This document shows positions 1 to 10,266 of a stretch of DNA of 10,358 bases, one piece after another. Both the position numbers and the translations under genes were made by a program. Where the stretch lies: UHGV virus genome UHGV-1708535. The stretch is one strand, 5' to 3'. This DNA comes from a virus. The notes below the pieces were generated by a model. It saw nothing but the letters and a program-made list of their open reading frames with translations. It did not search any database and was not told the DNA's origin. Every line of letters starts with the position of its first letter. Within the stretch, counting starts at the first letter, position 1.

Positions 1-143
1 TTCCCGGCAATTGCGCCGACATCAGCTCCCTGATTTATGACATACAGCAGGTAAGACTGGCTGAATATATTGCGTGGAAGGATTGATGTATCGAGCCGCG
101 TCGCCTGCACAATAACAGGGGTGTTGAGATTCGAATCAGCCAT
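1..143 (-). CDS. Tail needle protein (P22 gp26-like), N-terminal 47 codons only; gene continues past the window start
   Basis: Reverse-complement translation from ATG at 141-143 gives [47 protein letters not shown], which matches my recollection of the P22 gp26 N-terminus ([47 protein letters not shown]). Start overlaps the stop of the upstream gene as TAATG. Too short for the 60-aa track. Confidence 0.8.
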
Positions 144-1561
144 TACTCAATCCTTATCTGGCAACCAGACAGGGTGACAGGTGACTTCGTGATAACGCGC
201 AATTTGAAGCCGACATTTTTCCTGATGCGTCCGACCCGCTTCCACAAAACGCGTTTGTCGTAAACGAACGGTTCATTCTGCTCAATCATCTGCTCACGCC
301 CGTAATTGATGCCGTCAGTGGTTGCAGAGAGAAAAAGGCGGTCAGCATACTGCGCAACTCCAGTTGACGATTCAACTTCAAGGTCGAAAACTCTGGCGTT
401 ATCCGCTTTGAACAACGGAGTAAACAGCAGGTGTTCCTGCTGCTTGTCGTACTGGCTGCTGATATCGAACTGCAATTTCCCGGTCACGGATTCCAGCTTA
501 TCGCCGCACGTTATCTGATTGCCTTCGTAAATGAAGTCGATAGCGCGGTACACATCGTCATACAAGCCAGTTTTCAACACACACCATTGCGGACCATTGG
601 CGCTTGAAGATGCGTCGTACACGAGAACATGGCGCGGAAGGTGGATAATCAGCAACTCATGAGCATCAAATCGCAGCGATTCCATCACACCATCAGCCAG
701 TTCATCAGCAGTGTAGGAGCGGAGGATTTTCTCAATGCTCGCGCTGGCGATTGGTGACACCTGACCGGAACCGATGATGTACACAGACGGCGCACCTGTT
801 GCCGGATTGCTGATGAACGCATACGAATCAGCAAACGGCGTTTTGCAGTAAGTCCCGGCAATGCCTTTCTGCACCATCAGCGATGGCTGTGCGACATACA
901 AAGCAGCACCAACTGTGGTTGCACCAGTCAGGGAGAAATATTCAATCGTCGATGAGCCAAAGCAGACGATGAAGTCTCGCCATGTTCCGATGCCGATGAT
1001 GCCGTCAGGCTGTGATTCTGCCCGATATTGTGCGCTGTAGCGGTCAGGATGCGATTCGTCTTCAAGATCAGTGATAAACCATGAATCAGTACCGTCTTTT
1101 GACCACGCATAACGCCCACGTAAGCGAGTAATGTCACGAACCGAACCTAATTCATACTGCGTAAATCCGCTGTCTGCAGGCCAGTTTGAGACGGTTTTAA
1201 CCGTGCCATCATAGCGATACTCGAAAAGTTGACCATTAACGCCTACCGCCTGTGATGTCCGACCATGCGCCATTGATACGCGACCACTTCCGGCAACATC
1301 ACCGACTTCGCTTTCGCCTTTGTAGAGCTTGCCACCACACACACGATAAACAGCATTCTGCGCCATGTTGTACTCGACGCCCCGCGATACGCCGTTCACG
1401 TCGGAACGTTTGGCAATGCCTGGGAATGAGCGAAGATATCCGCTGCTGTTAAGGATTTCTTTGGGTGTAGCCAACATATTTACTGGCAGATAGTCGATAT
1501 AGTCGGCGTTTCGAAAGTCTTTGCCGACACCTTTCATAAGCGGAAGTTGCTGAATCGGCAT
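143..1561 (-). CDS. Head completion / tail hub protein (P22 gp10-like), 472 aa
   Basis: ORF track 143..1561; same length as P22 gp10 as I recall it; sits between the gp4-like and gp26-like genes; GAGGTG Shine-Dalgarno 6 nt upstream of the ATG at 1559-1561. Confidence 0.8.
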
Positions 1562-1570
1562 TTATTCACC

Positions 1571-2032
1571 TCACGTACTCGGATCATCTTTCTCGATGTA
1601 AAACCGATTCCACGTAAACGCGCTTTTGTTACCACTACCGCGAGGCATGTCATTTCGTCGCTCAAGTGGTGGTATTTTGGTTAAAGCGATACAGATTGTC
1701 TGATATGCACTGTCAGCAGCGGTAAGGAGAGCGTCTGACGGCTGAATGACGTTATCCATGCACACTTGCACAGCGAGTTTCAAAGCGACGCCATCATTTG
1801 CCCATGCAGGGATACCTGAATCATCGTCAGGTAACGGCATGATGCCGTTTTCTGTATCAGCAAACTGATACCCAAGCTCGATACCTTTAGCCTGCCATGC
1901 TGCCATCATGTCTTCGAGGTCATTAATGGCATCTTCAATTGCCTGAGGGTCAGCATCTGTCAACGTGGCATTGGAATACAGCCCGGCTTTTCGTAAAGCC
2001 TTAAGAACGAGATCACCCTTCGTTTTCGCCAT
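1571..2032 (-). CDS. Head completion protein (P22 gp4-like), 153 aa
   Basis: ORF track 1571..2032; N-terminus MAKTKGDLVLKALRKAGLYSNATLTDADPQAIEDAINDLEDMMAAW resembles the P22 gp4 N-terminus as I remember it; lies between the coat-proximal small ORF and gp10. Confidence 0.75.
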   Translation of the reverse strand: MAKTKGDLVLKALRKAGLYSNATLTDADPQAIEDAINDLEDMMAAWQAKGIELGYQFADTENGIMPLPDDDSGIPAWANDGVALKLAVQVCMDNVIQPSDALLTAADSAYQTICIALTKIPPLERRNDMPRGSGNKSAFTWNRFYIEKDDPST

Positions 2033-2201
2033 CTTCTTCCGCCTTAGCCACTTTTTGCTTCGTTGCGGTTTCTTCAGGAGTTTTTACCCAGCCTTTTTTC
2101 AGGTGAGATTTAACTTCTTCGTCATCAACAATGATGTAATCGACAGCAAACTGACCACAGGTGATCATGTTGCCAGGCTTATAGAGCATTGTTCGTGCCA
2201 T
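2013..2201 (-). CDS. Small hypothetical protein between coat and gp4 genes, 62 aa from the ATG at 2199-2201
   Basis: Track ORF 2013..2240 starts at a TTG that lies inside the terminator hairpin. The in-frame ATG at 2199-2201 is preceded by GGAG with a 6-nt spacer and is the more plausible start. Product MARTMLYKPGNMITCGQFAVDYIIVDDEEVKSHLKKGWVKTPEETATKQKVAKAEEDGENEG has an acidic, lysine-rich tail. The 3' end overlaps the gp4 start by 20 nt. Confidence 0.5.
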   Translation of the reverse strand: MARTMLYKPGNMITCGQFAVDYIIVDDEEVKSHLKKGWVKTPEETATKQKVAKAEEDGENEG

Positions 2202-2212
2202 TGTCTTCTCCC

Positions 2213-2235
2213 AATAAAAATGGGGCCGAAGCCCC
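2213..2235 (-). terminator. Intrinsic (Rho-independent) terminator-like hairpin immediately downstream of the coat gene
   Basis: Minus-strand RNA reads GGGGC-UUCG-GCCCC (plus 2222-2235) followed by AUUUUUAUU (plus 2213-2221), 7 nt after the coat stop codon: a 5-bp all-GC stem with a UUCG tetraloop and a U-tract. Confidence 0.7.
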
Positions 2236-2242
2236 ACCAAAA

Positions 2243-3496
2243 TTACTGCCCGGCAATAACGATGCCCGTATATTCAGGAACCAGTACAGAGCAACCGTAC
2301 AGAGTGGTGAAACGTGCAGTGGTTACGCCTTTGATGTGGTCGAAGGCGTAAGACATGATCAGCGTAGCGCCCTGCTCGGTGGTTGCTGTCATTACCTGTG
2401 GCCCCTGACCAGTCGGGAATGCCAGTTTGCCGTACATCAGTTCAACAGAACCATCAGCCCAGAACAGGTTAGCCGGTGCGGCATTTTTGTTGAGAATGGT
2501 AATTGCTGCACCATTTGCCGCGTTAGCATCAACGTTTGCATATGGACGGCTGGCGACATCCGCGTTGTCAGGCGGCAAAATTTTCGGGGAGATAGTTACT
2601 GTCGTTCCGCTAACTGCCAGAACGCGGAATACCTGCGGCTGCCCGGTGGTGTCTTTGGTGATCTGGTGTACAGAATTCACCCCTGCAATGGTAAATGCAT
2701 CGCCAACCTGCAAACCTTCAGCAGATACCGTAATGGTCCCCTGTCGGTTATCAACTGGCATATCGTTAGCATCTTTCGCTTCAACTTTGTGCGCAGGTGC
2801 TGCTGCCAGCGTAATGGAAGTTGCTGTCCCTTTCGGAACACGACCAGAAATATCGGTCTTGTAGCTATCAAAGGAAGCAACCGGAGGGATCTGCGCTTTT
2901 TCGTATGCTGTCAGGGTTGCGCCCTGAGCGTAGGCACGATGACCAAGCTCGCCAGCAAGGTCTTTGTAGTTGAAGGGGTTCCAGAAAGAGCGACGGTTGA
3001 TACCCTGCGGTACACCAATCGCCGTCATGGTGGCATCAATACCTGCCGCACAGTTCCACAAATCACGGCCCTGTGAACCAGTGGTTGAGTCAGCCATTGC
3101 GATCACGTTAGTAGCACGCTGCGTGACCATGGAAATCAGGTCAGAGTCAATCTGTGCAGCAAGGCGCATACCTGCGGCGCGACCAGCTTCAGTTTTATGT
3201 TCCGGGTCACGCATTTCACGCGCATCCAGAGTGTACAGAATGTTTTTAGGCTCCTTGAACACAGAAGGAACAAGGCGCTGAACCAGTGCTGTTGGCGTTT
3301 TGCTGCTGAGGTCGAGGCCTTCCTCAATGTTCATGTGGTAATGCTGCGGACGATACAGAACATCACCTGCTCGCTGCATTGCTGTATCACCGGGACGGAA
3401 TTTTTTAGCGTTACGGGAAACTACGCAGGCGGCCTCAAAGCCTTCAACGTAGTTTTCGAACATGATTTCAAGGTCTTTTGCTAATTGGTTAGCCAT
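2243..3496 (-). CDS. Major capsid (coat) protein, P22 gp5-like, 417 aa
   Basis: ORF track 2243..3496; position directly after the scaffolding gene; segments such as AMQRAGDVLYRP and RPYANVDANAANGAAITILNKNAAPANLFWADGS resemble P22 coat segments as I recall them ([46 protein letters not shown]); GGAG 8 nt upstream of the ATG. Confidence 0.88.
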   Translation of the reverse strand: MANQLAKDLEIMFENYVEGFEAACVVSRNAKKFRPGDTAMQRAGDVLYRPQHYHMNIEEGLDLSSKTPTALVQRLVPSVFKEPKNILYTLDAREMRDPEHKTEAGRAAGMRLAAQIDSDLISMVTQRATNVIAMADSTTGSQGRDLWNCAAGIDATMTAIGVPQGINRRSFWNPFNYKDLAGELGHRAYAQGATLTAYEKAQIPPVASFDSYKTDISGRVPKGTATSITLAAAPAHKVEAKDANDMPVDNRQGTITVSAEGLQVGDAFTIAGVNSVHQITKDTTGQPQVFRVLAVSGTTVTISPKILPPDNADVASRPYANVDANAANGAAITILNKNAAPANLFWADGSVELMYGKLAFPTGQGPQVMTATTEQGATLIMSYAFDHIKGVTTARFTTLYGCSVLVPEYTGIVIAGQ

Positions 3497-3514
3497 GCTT
3501 AATGCTCCGATAGG

Positions 3515-4408
3515 TTATTTTTTTGCCTTTTTAGCGGCGAAATACGGCGTCCAGTCACCAGTTTCCAGCGCCTTGGCTTTCAATTTGTCGAGGTTGTTGA
3601 TTACTGCGCCGTTGCTCCCCTTAACTGTCGGGGTTGTGGCTGCCGTGGTTTTTGCTTTTGGCATGATTCTGGCCTTCGATTCGATACGTTCCAGCAGACG
3701 ACCAATTGCTACGGGGTTGGTAGCTTCTGCCAGTTGCTTGCGCAGTTCAGCGTTGCGACCGAGTGCCAGAACAACGATTTCCGGCTTCTCTGACTCAAAC
3801 AGGATCGCGTTTTGTGTCTCGATGGGGATTTCCTCGAGTACGGCCTGTTCTGCTTCCTGATAGCCAGGGACCTTGAGAGCCTTAACACGTTGTTGATATT
3901 TGGATAATCGCTCTTGATAGGCAGCATGAAGCTCCTGTTCCTTCTGCTTGCGAGCCATCTCCTGTTGCTGGTACTTGCCGTTATCCTCTGCCCACTTAGT
4001 CATGCGTTGCTGGTAGATTTCTTCATCGAAACCGATGTCCTCATCATCCAGTTTTGGCATTCGCGGTGGTTGAGTGATTACCGGCTGCTGCTCGACGGGT
4101 TTCTGAGACTGACGCATCAGCTCTTTCAGCTCGCGGTCCTTCTCTTTAATCGTCTTGCGCAGGTGTTTTACCAGTCCATGCTCTGCGCCATCTTCGCTGG
4201 TTGGCGAATCCAGCTTTTCGTCACCAAAGTAGAATTCCTGTTCTGATTCGTCGTCATCAGTTTCAGTAGCTTCCTCTGCATCATTTCCGGAGGGCTTACT
4301 GCCATCTTCTGTTTCGACTTCTTCAGCCAGTTCGACATCATCAGGAATCTGCTCTGATGTATCGGTTTCGATTTCAACTTCTGGTGTGTTTTCTGCCATC
4401 TGGTCCAT
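3515..4408 (-). CDS. Scaffolding protein, P22 gp8-like, 297 aa
   Basis: ORF track 3515..4408; between portal and coat genes; strongly acidic N-terminal ~75 aa, charged helical middle, basic C-terminus (LDKLKAKALETGDWTPYFAAKKAKK) consistent with a coat-binding C-terminal domain; AGGGG Shine-Dalgarno upstream. Confidence 0.85.
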   Translation of the reverse strand: MDQMAENTPEVEIETDTSEQIPDDVELAEEVETEDGSKPSGNDAEEATETDDDESEQEFYFGDEKLDSPTSEDGAEHGLVKHLRKTIKEKDRELKELMRQSQKPVEQQPVITQPPRMPKLDDEDIGFDEEIYQQRMTKWAEDNGKYQQQEMARKQKEQELHAAYQERLSKYQQRVKALKVPGYQEAEQAVLEEIPIETQNAILFESEKPEIVVLALGRNAELRKQLAEATNPVAIGRLLERIESKARIMPKAKTTAATTPTVKGSNGAVINNLDKLKAKALETGDWTPYFAAKKAKK

Positions 4409-4498: not shown

Positions 4499-6694
4499 TT
4501 ACTGCTGTGGTTGTTGCTGAGTTGATTTTTTCAGGATGCTGCTGATGCCCATACGCTGCGCATGACCCTGTGCCTGACTTTTCAGGACAAGCTCTGCATC
4601 AGCACGGGCATTGTCTCCTTGCTGTTGCTGGAACTGTCCGAGCAGTTTCAGAGCCTCGCGGATATCAGATTTCTGCTGACTATCGGCAGATGCGAGGATT
4701 TTCACAACATTTGCCGCTGCAACCTGAGCATCAGTCTGTGCCTGGAATGCTTTAACCTGAATGGCTGCCTGTTCGTTCTGTGCTTTCTGCAATTCAGCCT
4801 GACCAGCAAGAAGCTGACCTTGCGCTGCAACCATAGCCGGATCTGGCTGACTGGCCTGTTGTTTCGCCTGCTCAACCATTTGCTGTTCTTCAGGCGTTCT
4901 CGGCTTGATAACGCCAGACAGAAGCAACTGATTGCGGTTGTATTCTTTAAGGTCGTCCATCCCTTCGCCGTCCATATTGTCGAGAATCATCGACGATACA
5001 AGGTCGTGCTTCGGCGTCCCTGGCGGGATAAGTGCCAGCATGGAAAGTAACGACTTAACCGTTGCATCACGGCGAGTAGCGAACGACTGACCGACATCGA
5101 CAGTCACTTCGTAGTTACCCTGCGAAAGGTCGTTAAGCGCGATAACCTGCCCTGTCTGACGGTCAACCACTTCACCAGTCATCAGCGCCACGTCATCGCT
5201 GCCGTCCTCATTAACGATACGCATCGGCGTATCGCTGCCATAGACTTCACGCGCCATAGAAAGCCACACAACGCCAGCGCGACGCATGGATTTAGCCATG
5301 TTGTCCATGTAGATATAGGACTGCGTATCCATCCGGTTAAAGATGCTATCAACGGTATCGGTGGCGACGTTGCTCGGCATGTTCTCAAGCTGCGACGCAC
5401 CTGTAATTTGCTGAATAGCCGTTCCGGTGTACTGCAATAGCCCGGCAAGAGCTGGAGGCATTTGTGTCGGAGGTGTATAACTGCTGACCTGAGCCTGCGC
5501 AGTAATATCTCCGTTTTTGTTTTTCAGACTGACCATCGGCAGGAACGCCGGGCGCTTTTTGTTGCGCTCCGCCCAATGAGTGGCAAGAGGACCAGGAATC
5601 ATGTCAACATCAACTACAGGAATGCCATCACCGCCAGCCTGAGTGGCGTTATCTGCAATCATGGAAACCATCAGGTTCTCAAGACGCTGTGCATCCATCG
5701 CTTTTGCTGCGTGGCCTTCGATTCGCTCCTGATTATCAACAAATGAGCGACGCCCATATACCGGGATGAGAGGAATATGTTCGCCCGGAATACGCTTCGG
5801 TTCTTCCAGCCATTCAGCGCCAGACAGAAGGCCGCAATAAACGCGGCGTTTCTTCACTGTCCGCTCGCCAATCAGTTCGAATGCGCCATCGGTCAGCTCG
5901 TCAACAACATCTTTGATTTGCTCTTCATCATAGATTGCCGTTTCTCCGCTAACAGGGTTGCGCCACGCCGTGAGCTTCACCTTCTCTATGCGAACTTCGT
6001 AGTAGCGTCCAACATAGATGGCATCAGGCGTTGACCAGTCATACTGAGTACCAGTGTCATCACGAGAAAGACTTGCCGCGATGGAGTCAGGGTATTCAGC
6101 CTTGAACGCTTTAGGCGTCATGGAGAACATTTCCATAGCCCACATAGCATCAGAGCGGTCATATTGCTTGCTGTCCTGATCGAAGAAGACGCATGTCGCT
6201 GGGTCGTAAACAGGAAGAAGACTGATGCGTCGCTGCTCGTTACTCGGATCCATTTCATCTTCGTAATCAGCACACATGCGGAAACAACCGAATCCGCCCG
6301 TTACAGCATCATCAAATGCGTTATCACACGCTTCGCCACCGGATGTTTCCTGATAGTCAGCGCGGAATTTGCCGTTCATCTTTTCGGCTAACGCTTCCGA
6401 TGCCTTATCGTCCTTCGGCCTGAATTTAACGCTGATGCGATTCTGTCGATACTCGCCAATGATGCGATCACATTCACGGGCAATCTTATTCAGTTCAAAG
6501 CGCGGGTAATGCTCAAACCTTCCTTCATCAAATGAGTAACCAGCGTTTGTGCTGCCTTCCCACTGTGCGCCGGACACCCGGACGAAACGTTGAGCCTCAA
6601 TAATCTGCTCACGCATATCCTGCGTTGCTGACCAGGCATTATCAAAGTTGCACAGCACCTTGCGATGCCAGTCAGTCATCTTTTTTTCTGCCAT
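4499..6694 (-). CDS. Portal protein, P22 gp1-like, 731 aa
   Basis: ORF track 4499..6694; directly downstream of the large terminase gene (TGA-t-ATG junction); length close to the P22 portal (about 725 aa as I recall); internal segments (DYEDEMDPSNEQRRISLLPVYDP, GEHIPLIPVYG) and the Gln/Ala-rich helical C-terminus resemble the P22 portal from memory. Confidence 0.9.
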   Translation of the reverse strand: MAEKKMTDWHRKVLCNFDNAWSATQDMREQIIEAQRFVRVSGAQWEGSTNAGYSFDEGRFEHYPRFELNKIARECDRIIGEYRQNRISVKFRPKDDKASEALAEKMNGKFRADYQETSGGEACDNAFDDAVTGGFGCFRMCADYEDEMDPSNEQRRISLLPVYDPATCVFFDQDSKQYDRSDAMWAMEMFSMTPKAFKAEYPDSIAASLSRDDTGTQYDWSTPDAIYVGRYYEVRIEKVKLTAWRNPVSGETAIYDEEQIKDVVDELTDGAFELIGERTVKKRRVYCGLLSGAEWLEEPKRIPGEHIPLIPVYGRRSFVDNQERIEGHAAKAMDAQRLENLMVSMIADNATQAGGDGIPVVDVDMIPGPLATHWAERNKKRPAFLPMVSLKNKNGDITAQAQVSSYTPPTQMPPALAGLLQYTGTAIQQITGASQLENMPSNVATDTVDSIFNRMDTQSYIYMDNMAKSMRRAGVVWLSMAREVYGSDTPMRIVNEDGSDDVALMTGEVVDRQTGQVIALNDLSQGNYEVTVDVGQSFATRRDATVKSLLSMLALIPPGTPKHDLVSSMILDNMDGEGMDDLKEYNRNQLLLSGVIKPRTPEEQQMVEQAKQQASQPDPAMVAAQGQLLAGQAELQKAQNEQAAIQVKAFQAQTDAQVAAANVVKILASADSQQKSDIREALKLLGQFQQQQGDNARADAELVLKSQAQGHAQRMGISSILKKSTQQQPQQ

Positions 6695-6695
6695 A

Positions 6696-8111
6696 TCAAC
6701 CTACACCACAAGGAATTGAGTAACTGGAATAGTCGGGTTGCGCAGCCGACTCCGGGCAATGCATACACATCATCAACGCATCAGCCAGGTTAGGAGATGG
6801 GATCCCGAGCTTTTGCTTCATTTCGACCTTAGTCATAAGCTCCAGCTTCCCGTTGTTATTGAATTTGCGCTGAATCTGCGTCAGTTCTGCAAACAGCTTC
6901 TCCAGCATCTTCTCGCCTATCGCTTCTTTGTCGAAACTCAGCATGTCGTCGGGGTCTGCATACTCACCGTGAACAACCGCCCGATATGTCAGATACAGCC
7001 TGTCAGCCAGCGCGTAATAGAATTGCGCTCGCTTATTGCGGAATACATCGCCAATAGTGCGAACATTGTCGCCCTGTACGACTTCATCAGCCCATGCTCC
7101 GGCCTGATATGGCGCATCTTCATCGAATGGCGATTCGCTGCCCTTGAACATCGTGGCGGTGATTTTCTTGCCGGAGAACGCTTCCGTTGTCTGTCTGCGT
7201 AGACCCGCACCAACACCATCACCATCCCACAGGTAATGGTCAGAGCCGTCTTCAATCGCCAGCGAAGTAGCCCAGTCAGCACCCTCGTTGATGTCCATCA
7301 GCAGACCTTCGGCAATGCGCTTAACTACCGAACCGTGACGCGATGCATAACCTTTAGCATCTGGCCCTGTATCTGATGGGTCATGCGCAGAAACAACAGC
7401 GCCTTTCGCTTTCCATCCGAGTTTCTTGTGCGCATCGGTTGCAGCTTCAAGCCATTCACGTTTGATGATTGCCATATCACTTGCGCTTACTGGCTCACCA
7501 AGCCAGATGTGACGATACAGTGTCGGATTTCTGCGTTTGCACTCTTCCATCTCCAGACGGAGAACTTCAGGAAAGTGCGGGTTGTCGGTGTAGTTCACCG
7601 TCAGCAGGCAAATATCATCGGGAGGATTTACGACGAATCGCTGATAGGTATCGTCGAGGATGTTCTTCGGGTTAAAGCTCACCCATATTTCAGAGAACGG
7701 CTTACGGATGGTTGGGATCAGGATATCCCATGATTCCTTCGTTACCGCTTCCGCTTCTTCCACCCAGCAGATATCAATGCCTTCGAGCGATTTAATCTTC
7801 GTCGGGTTGTTTTTGATGCCGTAGAACATGAACTCAGCATTCGTTCCGAGATGACGAATCATGGAACGCTGAATTTCAAACTCAGCCGAATACCCTTCCC
7901 GCTCGATGGTGTCTTCAAGCAACCGGATTACCGAATCGCTGATACTGTTTTGCAGTTCACGAGCGCAGAGAATACGCACAGGCTGTCGGCGCGCCGCTTC
8001 AACAAGCAGCCTCGCAATTGCCCATGATTTACCGCTACCTCGACCGCCTTTGGTGACTTTGTAGCGATGCGCCTCAATGAACGGTTCAAAGATAGGATTA
8101 ATCGAGGTCAT
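6696..8111 (-). CDS. terL: Terminase large subunit (ATPase/nuclease), 471 aa
   Basis: ORF track 6696..8111; Walker A P-loop GGRGSGKS near the N-terminus (KVTKGGRGSGKSWAIARLL); size typical of P22/Sf6 large terminases; ATGA start/stop overlap with the small terminase gene. Confidence 0.9.
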   Translation of the reverse strand: MTSINPIFEPFIEAHRYKVTKGGRGSGKSWAIARLLVEAARRQPVRILCARELQNSISDSVIRLLEDTIEREGYSAEFEIQRSMIRHLGTNAEFMFYGIKNNPTKIKSLEGIDICWVEEAEAVTKESWDILIPTIRKPFSEIWVSFNPKNILDDTYQRFVVNPPDDICLLTVNYTDNPHFPEVLRLEMEECKRRNPTLYRHIWLGEPVSASDMAIIKREWLEAATDAHKKLGWKAKGAVVSAHDPSDTGPDAKGYASRHGSVVKRIAEGLLMDINEGADWATSLAIEDGSDHYLWDGDGVGAGLRRQTTEAFSGKKITATMFKGSESPFDEDAPYQAGAWADEVVQGDNVRTIGDVFRNKRAQFYYALADRLYLTYRAVVHGEYADPDDMLSFDKEAIGEKMLEKLFAELTQIQRKFNNNGKLELMTKVEMKQKLGIPSPNLADALMMCMHCPESAAQPDYSSYSIPCGVG

Positions 8112-8530
8112 TTTCCGAATAGAGTGCTCATCGGTGATGTTTCAATCTGGATTGCGCCGCCGTCCTTACCGACAAGCTCGTTAGTTACCTTGTCGCCATA
8201 CTTACGGGGATTCATTCGGGCCAACGCCCATTTACGGGTATCTACGCGAAGTCTTGCCTTTGCCACCTCAGCAGCATCTGGAATCGCAGTGTCAGCAATT
8301 TCGAATATCTCTTCGAAAATAGAATCAGCTCGTGCCTCAGTTGCCTTCGCGTACTTGTCGCGAAAATCCTCATGCTTTGCCAACCAGCGGAAAACAGTGG
8401 ACTTATCCGGCATACCAGGACGCTTACATACTTTCAGCAGACTTTCGCCAGAAGAAAGCAACGAGCAGATATCGTCAGCCACCTCCGGCATATAATCAGA
8501 GGGGCGACCAGCTTTTGGTTCAGTCGCCAT
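8108..8530 (-). CDS. terS: Terminase small subunit (Sf6 gp1-like), 140 aa from the second ATG (142 aa if the ATG at 8534-8536 is used)
   Basis: ORF track 8108..8536; gene immediately upstream of terL and overlapping it by 4 nt; sequence MATEPKAGRPSDYMPEVADDICSLLSSGESLLKVCKRPGMPDKSTVFRWLAKHEDFRDKY has the HTH-like N-terminal DNA-binding region typical of small terminases. I chose the second ATG (8528-8530) because the GTGAG purine run abuts the first ATG with no spacer; this choice is uncertain. Confidence 0.8.
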   Translation of the reverse strand: MATEPKAGRPSDYMPEVADDICSLLSSGESLLKVCKRPGMPDKSTVFRWLAKHEDFRDKYAKATEARADSIFEEIFEIADTAIPDAAEVAKARLRVDTRKWALARMNPRKYGDKVTNELVGKDGGAIQIETSPMSTLFGK

Positions 8531-8553
8531 ATTCATCTCACTTAGTTGTTATT

Positions 8554-8733
8554 TCAGGCTGAGGACTCTTTCGCGCCTTCAATCAGTGACTGCTTCAGCA
8601 ATTCGAGTGTGCCAATCGCCTCACATAAACTGATTTCACCATCGTAATCATGAATGACGCTTTCCAGCCGCTCGTATAGCTCTTGAGTAATTGGGAATTT
8701 CTTCTCCTTACCAAAATTGATTACGCGGCTCAC
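8554..8733 (-). CDS. Hypothetical small protein, 59 codons, GTG start; possible ribbon-helix-helix-like fold
   Basis: Not in the track (below 60 aa). Open frame from GTG at 8731-8733 to TGA at 8554-8556, GGAG 6 nt upstream of the GTG, 2 nt after the stop of the 80-aa ORF and 17 nt before terS. Translation (V)SRVINFGKEKKFPITQELYERLESVIHDYDGEISLCEAIGTLELLKQSLIEGAKESSA shows a strand-helix-turn-helix pattern reminiscent of RHH proteins; this is pattern inference only. Confidence 0.4.
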   Translation of the reverse strand: MSRVINFGKEKKFPITQELYERLESVIHDYDGEISLCEAIGTLELLKQSLIEGAKESSA

Positions 8734-8734
8734 A

Positions 8735-8977
8735 TCATGCTCCGGTAGTGAACAGGTCTAACGCTTCCTTCGATTTACGCACTGCTTCGATAGTGCGGGT
8801 CGTGATATCTGAATTAGCGCCGCCTGACTGGAAGTGAATTTTAAATAGCTCAAGCTTCAGCTCGTCAGTGCCAATGAACTGAAATGCTTCTTCTGCGGCT
8901 GCGTTCTGGTTCATGACCAGTTTGTAAATCTCTAACTGGAATTTCTGTTCTTCAGTCATGGGAATAATCTCTGCCAT
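8735..8977 (-). CDS. Hypothetical protein, 80 aa
   Basis: ORF track 8735..8977; GGAG 7 nt upstream of the ATG at 8975-8977; same strand and tight packing with neighbours; predicted helical, no family recognised. Confidence 0.6.
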   Translation of the reverse strand: MAEIIPMTEEQKFQLEIYKLVMNQNAAAEEAFQFIGTDELKLELFKIHFQSGGANSDITTRTIEAVRKSKEALDLFTTGA

Positions 8978-8990
8978 TGTTGGCTCCGTT

Positions 8991-9071
8991 TATCCGTTAA
9001 AAGGGATATCAGTTAAGTTATCCCGTGTAGGGTATAAGCCATTATCAAAGCCACTCTGTAGGGAATGGCTT
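8991..9071. repeat. Cluster of nested inverted repeats in the 103-bp spacer upstream of the 80-aa ORF
   Basis: Plus strand: TATCC (8991-8995) and TATCCC (9019-9024) can each pair with GGGATA (9003-9008); AAGCCATT (9036-9043) and AAGCCA (9046-9051) can each pair with AATGGCTT (9064-9071). These form two sets of mutually exclusive stems, adjacent to the Shine-Dalgarno of the 80-aa ORF. Confidence 0.6.
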
Positions 9072-9080
9072 TTGTAATAA

Positions 9081-9455
9081 CTACTGTTCGCTTAGCTTCT
9101 GCTTCAGCAAGTAACCTTCGAGCATCCAGATTTTGTTTACAGCATTCTGCCGGGCAATCTTCCGACCAATTTCTGCATCAAAGTTTTCCGGGCTCGCACA
9201 GGCACTCTCTCCGGTAACGGTGAAGCCATTCTTCAGTACCAATACGCAGAAAGTGAGAAGGTGCAGAGCATCAGGGGTGGCTTCGACATAAGGCTCCGGA
9301 TTATAAATAAGGTCATCTTCTTTAGCCTGGTGGTCACCCTGCGCAGCAGTGAAAAAATGCTCACTGCAAATGAGGCCTTCAATTTTCTCGGGTGTTACAC
9401 GCGGTGCCGTTTTGCCTTTCTCAACGATTTCTTTTTCGATTTGCTGGTCGTTCAT
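9081..9455 (-). CDS. Hypothetical protein, 124 aa, no family recognised
   Basis: ORF track 9081..9455; AGGGG 9 nt upstream of the ATG at 9453-9455; in-frame TGA 16 codons upstream rules out a longer N-terminus; flanked by non-coding spacers of 289 bp and 103 bp. Confidence 0.65.
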   Translation of the reverse strand: MNDQQIEKEIVEKGKTAPRVTPEKIEGLICSEHFFTAAQGDHQAKEDDLIYNPEPYVEATPDALHLLTFCVLVLKNGFTVTGESACASPENFDAEIGRKIARQNAVNKIWMLEGYLLKQKLSEQ

Positions 9456-9651
9456 AATTATGCCCCTGTGGAGTGGTTGCTTGATTAGGATGTCTTTCCA
9501 TCAGTCCGCCACCACAAAGAATCTTTTTTGCCATAAGGCAGGAGGTTCATCTTTCAGTGGCTGCCAGTGTTATTTCCCCGCTTACTGGCTTGGGTTGTTT
9601 CGCTGTACTGCCGTTAATTGGTTGCCCAGAATAAATTCCGGTTTCATTATC

Positions 9652-9673
9652 AAGCCCACCCGTAGATGGGCTT
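9652..9673. repeat. Stable hairpin (7-bp stem, 8-nt loop) in the 289-bp spacer
   Basis: Plus strand AAGCCCA (9652-9658) pairs with TGGGCTT (9667-9673). On the plus strand it is followed by TGTAAT (weak U-rich tail); on the minus strand by GAUAAUG (no U-tract). Confidence 0.7.
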
Positions 9674-9723
9674 TGTAATGGATAGCCGTTGCTCAGTTCT
9701 CGTAATGCTTTGATTTTTTCGAT

Positions 9724-9739
9724 AACGCAGTTTTGCGTT
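9724..9739. repeat. Hairpin (6-bp stem, 4-nt loop) immediately 3' of the KilA-N gene stop
   Basis: Plus strand AACGCA (9724-9729), loop GTTT, TGCGTT (9734-9739). On the minus-strand RNA it is followed by AUCGAAAAAAUC (A-rich, not a terminator tail). Confidence 0.65.
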
Positions 9740-9744
9740 TGCCA

Positions 9745-10266
9745 TCAGCACGCGATATCGAGAGTCAACTGCAGTTGCTCGCGCCAGTACTCGACATTTG
9801 CTTCAATAACCGGCTTATCCCATCGCCAGCGAGCCATCTCTCTTGCCCCATTGCTGGCTTTTGATTTCCGGTCATCGCGAATGCGACATGCTTGCTCATA
9901 TTTCTGCTGCTCAGTCAGTTCACCGCGAAGCAGACTATCAATGTGCAGGTCGCACCACACAGCAAAACGAGCATCACACCAACGGGCAAATGCAACTGAA
10001 AGTTTTGGATGTAGCCACGTACCACCACCCCTGTCCTTTCGTGCCTTGCTGGTTTTTACATACCTCGATTGTGAGGGATGTAAAATTTGAGATTCTTTCC
10101 CGGTCAACGCTTCGTCTAAAGCACGAACGTATTCAAGCGTTTCTGCCAAACGCATCCAGTTATCAATGCGTTTCCCAAATCTCTCAGCAACACCTGTGAC
10201 GTTGATCCAACCATCAGTGTTGAAACTGACAATTTCACCTTTGTAGTTAAGTGGCACGATATTCAT
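9745..10266 (-). CDS. KilA-N domain-containing protein, 173 aa
   Basis: ORF track 9745..10266; the translation contains the pattern I associate with KilA-N/APSES-type domains (GGGTWLHPKLSVAFARWCDARFAVW preceded by an N-terminal region NYKGEIVSFNTDGWINVTGVAERFGK); AT-rich codon choice relative to the structural genes. Domain assignment is from memory. Confidence 0.65.
   Translation of the reverse strand: MNIVPLNYKGEIVSFNTDGWINVTGVAERFGKRIDNWMRLAETLEYVRALDEALTGKESQILHPSQSRYVKTSKARKDRGGGTWLHPKLSVAFARWCDARFAVWCDLHIDSLLRGELTEQQKYEQACRIRDDRKSKASNGAREMARWRWDKPVIEANVEYWREQLQLTLDIAC

Follow-up and report, generated by a model that had tools for sequence, protein, structure and literature searches.

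A conserved terminator-like hairpin directly after the coat gene in the late operon of a CUS-3-type P22-like phage

Introduction

A hairpin located directly after the coat gene of the virus genome UHGV-1708535 raises the question of what role a canonical terminator that abuts a stop codon could have in a Q-antiterminated operon. The whole stretch of DNA that was analysed, 10,358 nucleotides in length, is referred to here as the window. The element itself is already known from relatives of this phage; annotations of it in HK620, Sf6, and P22 go back to 2001-2004. In the same slot, the GenBank record of HK620 gives a terminator "tGP5", described as a consensus termination sequence after the major capsid transcript; that of Sf6 gives "t coat", a stem-loop and likely transcription terminator; and that of P22-pbi gives an "RNA stem-loop". 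The post-coat hairpin is not annotated in the GenBank records of CUS-3 and Sf101.

The genome paper of phage L discusses the post-coat hairpin and describes the roles of such terminators as "not known" (PMC8022706). The first option considered there is partial termination that lowers the level of downstream mRNA (PMC8022706), and the second is the halting of spurious transcription that has begun without antitermination (PMC8022706). The initial annotation of the window, which was made from the letters alone, had proposed that the hairpin might, in an antiterminated late operon, serve for partial termination or for 3' stabilisation, so that coat mRNA would be raised relative to the downstream low-copy proteins; these hypotheses were already in print. 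No published 3'-end mapping or mutational test of the post-coat hairpin was found for P22-like phages in the accessible literature.

Gene content of the window

All long ORFs of the window were located on the minus strand, and the gene order was P22-like. The window was 95-98% identical to CUS-3, Sf101, Kapi1, and related Lederbergvirus genomes, with an identity of 96.7% across 89% of the window in the case of Kapi1. At least 80% of the window was present in 333 of 5,426 complete E. coli genomes. The window is a P22-like (Lederbergvirus) late operon of the CUS-3/Kapi1 type.

On the minus strand, the genes for the small terminase (8108-8536), the large terminase (6696-8111), and the portal (4499-6694) precede the scaffolding protein gene (3515..4408), which was taken from the ORF list, is labelled scaffold in the CUS-3 and Sf101 annotations, and lies directly 5' of the coat gene. 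The coat (major capsid) gene (2243..3496, minus strand) encodes a protein of 417 aa that matched Pfam PF11651 (P22_CoatProtein, E=3e-76), and the coat region showed 96-99% nucleotide identity to those of CUS-3, Sf101, and Kapi1. It is followed on the same strand by a small conserved ORF of 62 aa (2013..2201; PHROG 1175, E=9e-29), whose counterparts are P22 orf69, Sf6 gene 6, and HK620 hkbT, by the gp4 head-completion/tail accessory gene (1571..2032; Pfam PF11650, E=7e-41), and by the gp10 head-completion gene (143..1561; Pfam PF11134, E=6e-301). The coat gene, the small ORF, gp4, and gp10 had been named in the initial annotation, and the profile matches bear these identities out.

The region from 8554 to 10266 on the minus strand, 5' of the small terminase gene, encodes a 59-aa product with no Pfam match and an 80-aa DUF2560 product (PF10834), which correspond in size and position to HK620 hkbN and hkbM, respectively. 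A 124-aa Phage_gp49_66 product (PF13876) and a 173-aa product with a KilA-N domain (PF04383) are also encoded 5' of the small terminase gene. The equivalent slot of BTP1 holds rha and the lysogen-expressed pid.

In both Kapi1 and Sf6, a Q antiterminator lies ahead of this operon; the window itself does not include the Q gene. By analogy with Kapi1 and Sf6, the late operon of the UHGV-1708535 phage is presumably Q-antiterminated.

Anatomy of the hairpin

From 2245 to 2199, the minus strand reads UAA-UUUU-GGU-GGGGC-UUCG-GCCCC-A-UUUUUAUU-GGGAG-AAGACA-AUG, and all the features described below lie on this strand. The coat stop codon TAA (2245-2243) is followed by the 5' arm of the hairpin, GGU plus GGGGC (2231..2238, with the core at 2235-2231), which was recovered from the sequence, the consensus scan, the fold, and our own scan. 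The UUCG tetraloop (2227..2230) was evident in both the sequence and the fold. The 3' arm, GCCCC plus AUU (2219..2226, with the core at 2226-2222), was supported by the scans, the sequence, the fold, and the covariation. The U-tract, as read from the sequence, occupies 2213..2220; it follows an A at 2221 and consists of UUUUU (2220-2216), one A, and UU (2214-2213). The GGGAG Shine-Dalgarno sequence of the small ORF (2208..2212) was likewise read from the sequence, 6 nt 5' of the ATG.

The 5-bp G-C core together with one U-A and two G-U pairs makes a stem of 8 bp (2238-2219) with a folding energy of -13.3 kcal/mol, and the first two U of the U-tract are able to pair with G2237 and G2238. The core stem begins 7 nt, and the extended stem 4 nt, 3' of the coat stop codon. 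The gap between the coat gene and the small ORF is 41 nt long, and the 17 nt from the end of the stem to the ATG are mostly taken up by the U-tract and the Shine-Dalgarno sequence. The initial annotation had placed a hairpin at 2213-2235, at a distance of 7 nt from the coat stop codon. The hairpin is real; these coordinates span precisely the 5-bp core, the tetraloop, and the U-tract, and 7 nt holds true for the core stem.

The structural features looked for in an intrinsic (Rho-independent) terminator were all found at this site, namely a G-C-rich stem of ~5-14 bp, a loop of 3-8 nt, a U-rich tract directly 3' of the stem (at least 5 T in 8, the scan threshold), and a sense orientation on the late-operon (minus) strand, 3' of the coat gene. 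The anatomy is that of a canonical intrinsic terminator, and termination activity is predicted for it. The hairpin had also been called strong and terminator-like. The site was the top-ranked terminator-like one in the window; however, the stem is short (five G-C pairs and three weak ones) and the U-tract is interrupted, and "strong" is somewhat generous.

The hairpin resembles the tGP5 and t coat elements of P22-like phages in its slot, in which the coat stop codon is followed by a hairpin with a U-tract, the small ORF, gp4, and gp10. It also resembles them in having 5-7 G-C-rich pairs and a tetraloop, in being on the same strand, and in its similar closeness to the stop codon. It differs from them in its flanking bases and coat gene, which are of the CUS-3 type. 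By position, the hairpin of the window is the CUS-3-type copy of this P22-like post-coat element.

Two further candidates were considered for the structure. A bidirectional terminator was ruled out, as the stem on the plus strand is followed by ACCAAAATT with no T-run, the 5' flank of the hairpin being UAAUUUU. An RNase III processing site was dismissed on general knowledge, the 8-bp stem being too short.

Scans, folding, and promoter-like sites

In the consensus scan, the post-coat hairpin (8 pairs, 5 G-C, loop of 4) ranked first among the 18 terminator-like sites in the window. In our own scan, no hairpin-plus-T-tract of the late-operon strand was more stable, its energy being -13.3 vs -9.2 kcal/mol for the runner-up. 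It was the sole canonical terminator in the head-to-tail part of the late operon. A perfect palindrome in the portal gene, GCCGC...GCGGC (5831-5847), scored as terminator-like on either strand, at -9.2 and -8.0 kcal/mol, but its T-tracts were poor; this hairpin is probably a coincidence. When positions 1500-3600 were searched against Rfam at a permissive E-value, only chance hits below the gathering score were obtained, such as fstAT, with 17.8 bits vs 72.

A 66-nt region was folded with RNAfold, and the hairpin was present in both the MFE and the centroid structures. Both also contained a long-range interaction in which the 3' end of the coat gene paired with the AUG of the small ORF. One reading considered was that the hairpin is a product of chance or has a local role only, such as the tuning of translation initiation at the small ORF. 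In favour of this reading, the end of the hairpin is 6 nt from the Shine-Dalgarno sequence, the 66-nt region folded only modestly better than its shuffles (z = -2.2), and an equally stable terminator-like hairpin occurred anywhere in 11 of 300 dinucleotide shuffles (3.7%) of the whole 10.3 kb. Against it, the hairpin sequestered neither the Shine-Dalgarno sequence nor the AUG in the centroid structure. The chance that such a hairpin would fall within the 41-nt gap was inferred to be of the order of 1e-4.

Matches to sigma-70-like promoters were scarce in the window on both strands (3 vs 10.8 +/- 2.9 in dinucleotide shuffles), and the window scan gave no promoter-like site on the minus strand near 2200. 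For the late region of BTP1, the number of such matches (16 vs 21.5 +/- 5.5) was within ~1 standard deviation of the shuffles.

Conservation among related phages

The coat-to-gp4 regions of 16 phages, chosen via gp4 homology (which links roughly 180 phage records), were surveyed. A hairpin with a U-tract was present directly 3' of the coat stop codon in 15 of the 16 loci, and Ralstonia phage RSK1 was the sole locus without a post-coat hairpin. Temperate relatives carrying the hairpin were CUS-3, Sf101, P22, epsilon34, Sf6, HK620, IME10, NM-3, APSE-1, and phiSG1, and more distant relatives carrying it were sortkaff, Kc237, IME_EC2, Skarpretter, C130_2, and Kc259. As in HK620, Sf6, P22, and CUS-3, the hairpin of the window lies between the coat gene on one side and the small ORF, gp4, and gp10 on the other.

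The stems of the relatives differed from one another in a compensatory manner, with GGGGC/GCCCC, GGGAGC/GCUCCC, GGGCGC/GUGCCC, and GGGGGC/GCCCCC among them, and the loops were UUCG, UGCG, UUAC, UUCC, GUAA, UUUA, UUUG, UACG, and GAAA. The core of BTP1 and epsilon34, GGGGC-UUCG-GCCCC, was identical to that of the window. The hairpin and its U-tract were thus conserved in structure rather than in sequence across coat types. The coat types share 14-28% protein identity (PMC2629481). Since the coat proteins are only 14-28% identical, the conservation of the hairpin is not simple sequence inheritance.

Covariation was assessed in an alignment of 13 sequences, in which 95.6% of the cells were paired, 3 of 7 pairs were changed on both sides, and 0 of 500 shuffles scored as high; as the sequences were hand-registered on the tetraloop and sortkaff and IME_EC2 (whose loops are not 4 nt) were left out, this alignment leans towards structure. 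The checks that the initial annotation had named for its reading included the recurrence of this hairpin behind the coat genes of relatives and a step in transcript abundance across it. The former was borne out by the 15 of 16 loci together with the covariation.

The U-tract was also well kept. Within the 8 nt that follow the G-C core, 14 of the 15 related hairpins carry 6-8 U, and that of phiSG1 carries 4. Furthermore, the U-tract is retained in six relatives whose next start codon lies 19-47 nt from the hairpin. This retention points to selection on the anatomy of a terminator and not merely on a hairpin. Because the U-tract is retained with the start codon 19-47 nt off, it argues for selection on termination at the level of the polymerase, and not only on an exonuclease barrier or on the context of the ribosome-binding site.

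IMG/VR was searched by alignment to gp10, and among the best 80 contigs, all with gp10 at least 99% identical to that of the window, three coat types were found. Each coat type had its own hairpin, and the core stem was invariant within a type. For the CUS-3 type, the few variants were confined to the 5' flank or the Shine-Dalgarno sequence, one of them having TGGAG in place of GGGAG. Three coat types behind a near-identical gp10 indicate a frequent recombination joint between the coat gene and gp10. By type, these best 80 contigs comprised 35 CUS-3-like ones by match to the intergenic region and, as tallied from groups of ORF tails, ~21 IME10-like and ~17 Sf6-like ones, and the rest were mis-picked ORFs or were skipped. 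The gp4 identities of ~40% place the recombination joint near the gp4/gp10 border.

Read-through of the hairpin

Since essential genes lie downstream and there is no room for a promoter, the hairpin cannot be a full stop. The gp4 gene has no promoter of its own, and therefore its expression must use read-through of the hairpin; the expression of gp10 also depends on this read-through.

Two features of the locus bear on how such read-through could be achieved. Firstly, it is established that Q-modified RNA polymerase is resistant to terminators (PMC8022706). Secondly, the 5' arm of the hairpin, 4-7 nt past the stop codon, falls inside the zone of ~10 nt downstream of the A site that is protected by the ribosome. 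With a stop codon only 5 bp away, lambda tR2 lost most of its efficiency, going from ~90% to <10% (Li et al. 2016, PMC4824070), and uncoupling of translation abolished this repression by the stop codon (PMC4824070). The 5' arm in the tR2 construct was ~5-8 nt from the stop codon (PMC4824070), similar to the 4-7 nt in the window; however, tR2 was assayed in an engineered plasmid reporter (PMC4824070), whereas the hairpin of the window belongs to phage late transcripts. Given Q antitermination and the masking of the 5' arm by the ribosome, leakiness is predicted. With these features, termination would mainly affect polymerases that are unmodified or not closely trailed by a ribosome.

RNA levels in the BTP1 prophage

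BTP1 is a P22-type prophage with high spontaneous induction, for which TPM values in 17 growth conditions have been published (PMC7067206, supplementary file 1). The 8 conditions with a coat TPM of at least 15 were taken as a high-signal set. In these values, which are population averages from a lysogen with ~0.2% spontaneously induced cells and another coat type, the RNA ratio from the coat gene to the next gene was 0.64 over the 17 conditions (lower in 16 of 17; Wilcoxon p=5e-5) and 0.56 over the high-signal set. The ratio from this next gene to gp4 was 1.06 and 0.99, respectively, and that from portal to scaffold was 1.05 and 1.5. In the high-signal conditions, scaffold-coat RNA was thus ~1.5-2x that of its neighbours, and the hairpin was located at the 3' edge of this segment.

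The abundance step foreseen in the initial annotation was therefore observed in BTP1, and comparable steps were also observed where there is no terminator. From gp10 to gp26 (junction 8823-8827), RNA dropped to 0.51, with a drop in 17 of 17 conditions, and from holin to lysozyme the ratio was 0.65. The scan gave no canonical terminator at the gp10/gp26 or the holin/lysozyme junction, and the post-coat hairpin was the only good internal terminator-like site that it gave on the BTP1 late strand. As equal steps occurred without a terminator, the step at the BTP1 hairpin could be ordinary differential decay, and differential decay or processing shapes the BTP1 late operon beyond the hairpin. The step fits partial termination and/or 3' stabilisation, and it excludes a strong stop. 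The supplements of Owen et al. list no non-coding RNA for the 3' end of the BTP1 coat gene.

Possible roles of the hairpin

Among the roles considered, we find it moderately probable that the hairpin is a leaky conditional terminator, which most late transcription passes and which leaves a modest excess of coat RNA. With Q-modified polymerase and a ribosome at the coat stop codon, most late transcription would read through. A minority of polymerases, those not modified by Q or without a close ribosome, would terminate at the hairpin, which would then stand at the 3' end of the RNA and shield the scaffold-coat RNA from 3' exonucleases. Scaffold and coat would together make up a stretch of RNA bounded by the hairpin on its 3' side, and this RNA would be about two-fold more abundant than the downstream messages for the low-copy proteins of head completion and ejection. 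It is presumably the hairpin that causes the RNA step, its effect being split between termination and stabilisation. Q modification and ribosome masking might cut termination to almost nothing, and the conserved U-tract would then need another explanation.

Structures that follow the gene for a major subunit include the f1 gene VIII terminator and those of papA, pufBA, and the rplL-rpoB attenuator. They resemble the hairpin of the window in that a structure after a high-copy gene favours its RNA over that of the downstream low-copy genes; however, their sequences and hosts are unrelated, and several of them use RNase E processing. To our knowledge, none of them lies within a Q-antiterminated operon. 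In phage T7, Tphi is a leaky terminator directly after gene 10 (major capsid), and the essential genes downstream are expressed by read-through. The likeness to the hairpin of the window is that of a leaky terminator after the most abundant structural gene. In contrast, Tphi works on T7 RNA polymerase, is unrelated to the hairpin in sequence, and has the promoters phi9, phi10, and phi13 around it, whereas no promoter is detectable near the hairpin of the window. T7 is known to balance its expression with inefficient terminators (PMC9163698).

A second explanation, which we hold to be possible but a good deal less probable than the leaky terminator, is that of an insulator. Q-modified polymerase would ignore the hairpin, and polymerases that had set out without Q, be it from internal or spurious promoters or in the lysogen, would be kept from entering the genes for head completion, ejection, and the tailspike. 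Should scaffold and coat be served by internal promoters, transcripts that end at the hairpin would moreover boost scaffold/coat RNA, as in the phi10-gene 10-Tphi arrangement of T7. A full terminator anatomy with a conserved U-tract makes most sense for polymerases that are competent to terminate, and insulation is explicitly one of the two options in the phage L paper (PMC8022706). In BTP1, four starts of transcription on the coding strand were mapped to the capsid gene cluster by dRNA-seq (PMC7067206), and in the high-signal conditions RNA rose 1.5-fold from portal to scaffold and fell 0.56-fold after coat. However, no sigma-70-like site was found on the minus strand of the window upstream of scaffold or coat. 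Furthermore, a terminator 4-7 nt past a stop codon should be weak for unmodified polymerase as well when translation is coupled, and insulation alone does not explain the constant placement directly after the coat gene. The insulator role is compatible with the leaky terminator, and the two are not exclusive.

That the hairpin does not terminate in vivo and is purely a stability element seems improbable. In this case, it would be a barrier to PNPase or RNase II after endonucleolytic cleavage downstream and would prolong the life of the scaffold-coat RNA. Intercistronic stabilising hairpins occur in puf, pap, and malEFG. Very little termination is indeed what Q modification and ribosome masking predict, the scaffold-coat plateau of BTP1 is bounded by the hairpin on its 3' side, and the terminator-free RNA steps in the BTP1 operon show that differential decay is at work. 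On the other hand, an exonuclease barrier needs no U-tract, yet nearly all of the related hairpins keep one of 6-8 U, and a stem of five G-C pairs is short compared with the classic stabilisers. Finally, a chance hairpin or one with only a local role is hardly credible, as its position is kept, with compensatory changes in the stem, across coat types of such low protein identity, and as the six relatives with a distant start codon keep the U-tract.

Spacing between the stop codon and the hairpin

In 8 of the 9 temperate, Q-dependent relatives, only 2-5 nt separate the hairpin from the coat stop codon; in APSE-1, the distance is 14 nt. In six non-Lederbergvirus relatives (regions L010 856-947, L011 820-911, L012 863-953, L013 1092-1166, L015 1086-1157, and L016 861-924), the hairpin begins 15-33 nt after the stop codon and has a longer stem and 7-8 U. 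This sample is small and phylogenetically clustered, its lineages being few and not independent. We speculate that the hairpin may abut the stop codon by design, as a terminator gated by both the ribosome and Q, though we consider this rather unlikely. If it were so, coupled antiterminated transcription would pass, and transcripts that are uncoupled or unmodified would be selectively killed; the difference in spacing would then be a general rule for terminators inside antiterminated operons. A TATACT motif just 3' of the U-tract is common to sortkaff, Kc237, and IME_EC2.

Start codon of the small ORF

In the ORF list, the small ORF is given as 2013..2240 with a TTG start, and this version, which is a mechanical extension, passes through the hairpin. 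The initial annotation had considered the TTG-extended version unlikely to be real, and several observations agree with it. An in-frame ATG is present at 2201 with its Shine-Dalgarno sequence GGGAG at the distance given above, the small ORF is annotated as a 189-nt CDS in CUS-3 and Sf101, and position 1 of the PHROG 1175 profile aligns at residue 2 of the small ORF. Moreover, each of the other coat types has an ATG and a Shine-Dalgarno-like sequence soon after its hairpin. The true start of the small ORF is ATG 2201 and not TTG 2240, and a practical use of the present analysis is that the annotation of this ORF can be fixed at ATG 2201.

The entries of two relatives differ from this arrangement. 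In IME10 (NC_019501, 900-1689), gp4 is annotated as a 606-nt CDS from 1084, and the small post-hairpin ORF (ATG ~946) is absent from the annotation. In APSE-1 (AF157835, 966-1298), the antisense P25/P26 are annotated, and the sense strand has a small ORF starting MERKSVF. Both entries are probably annotation errors.
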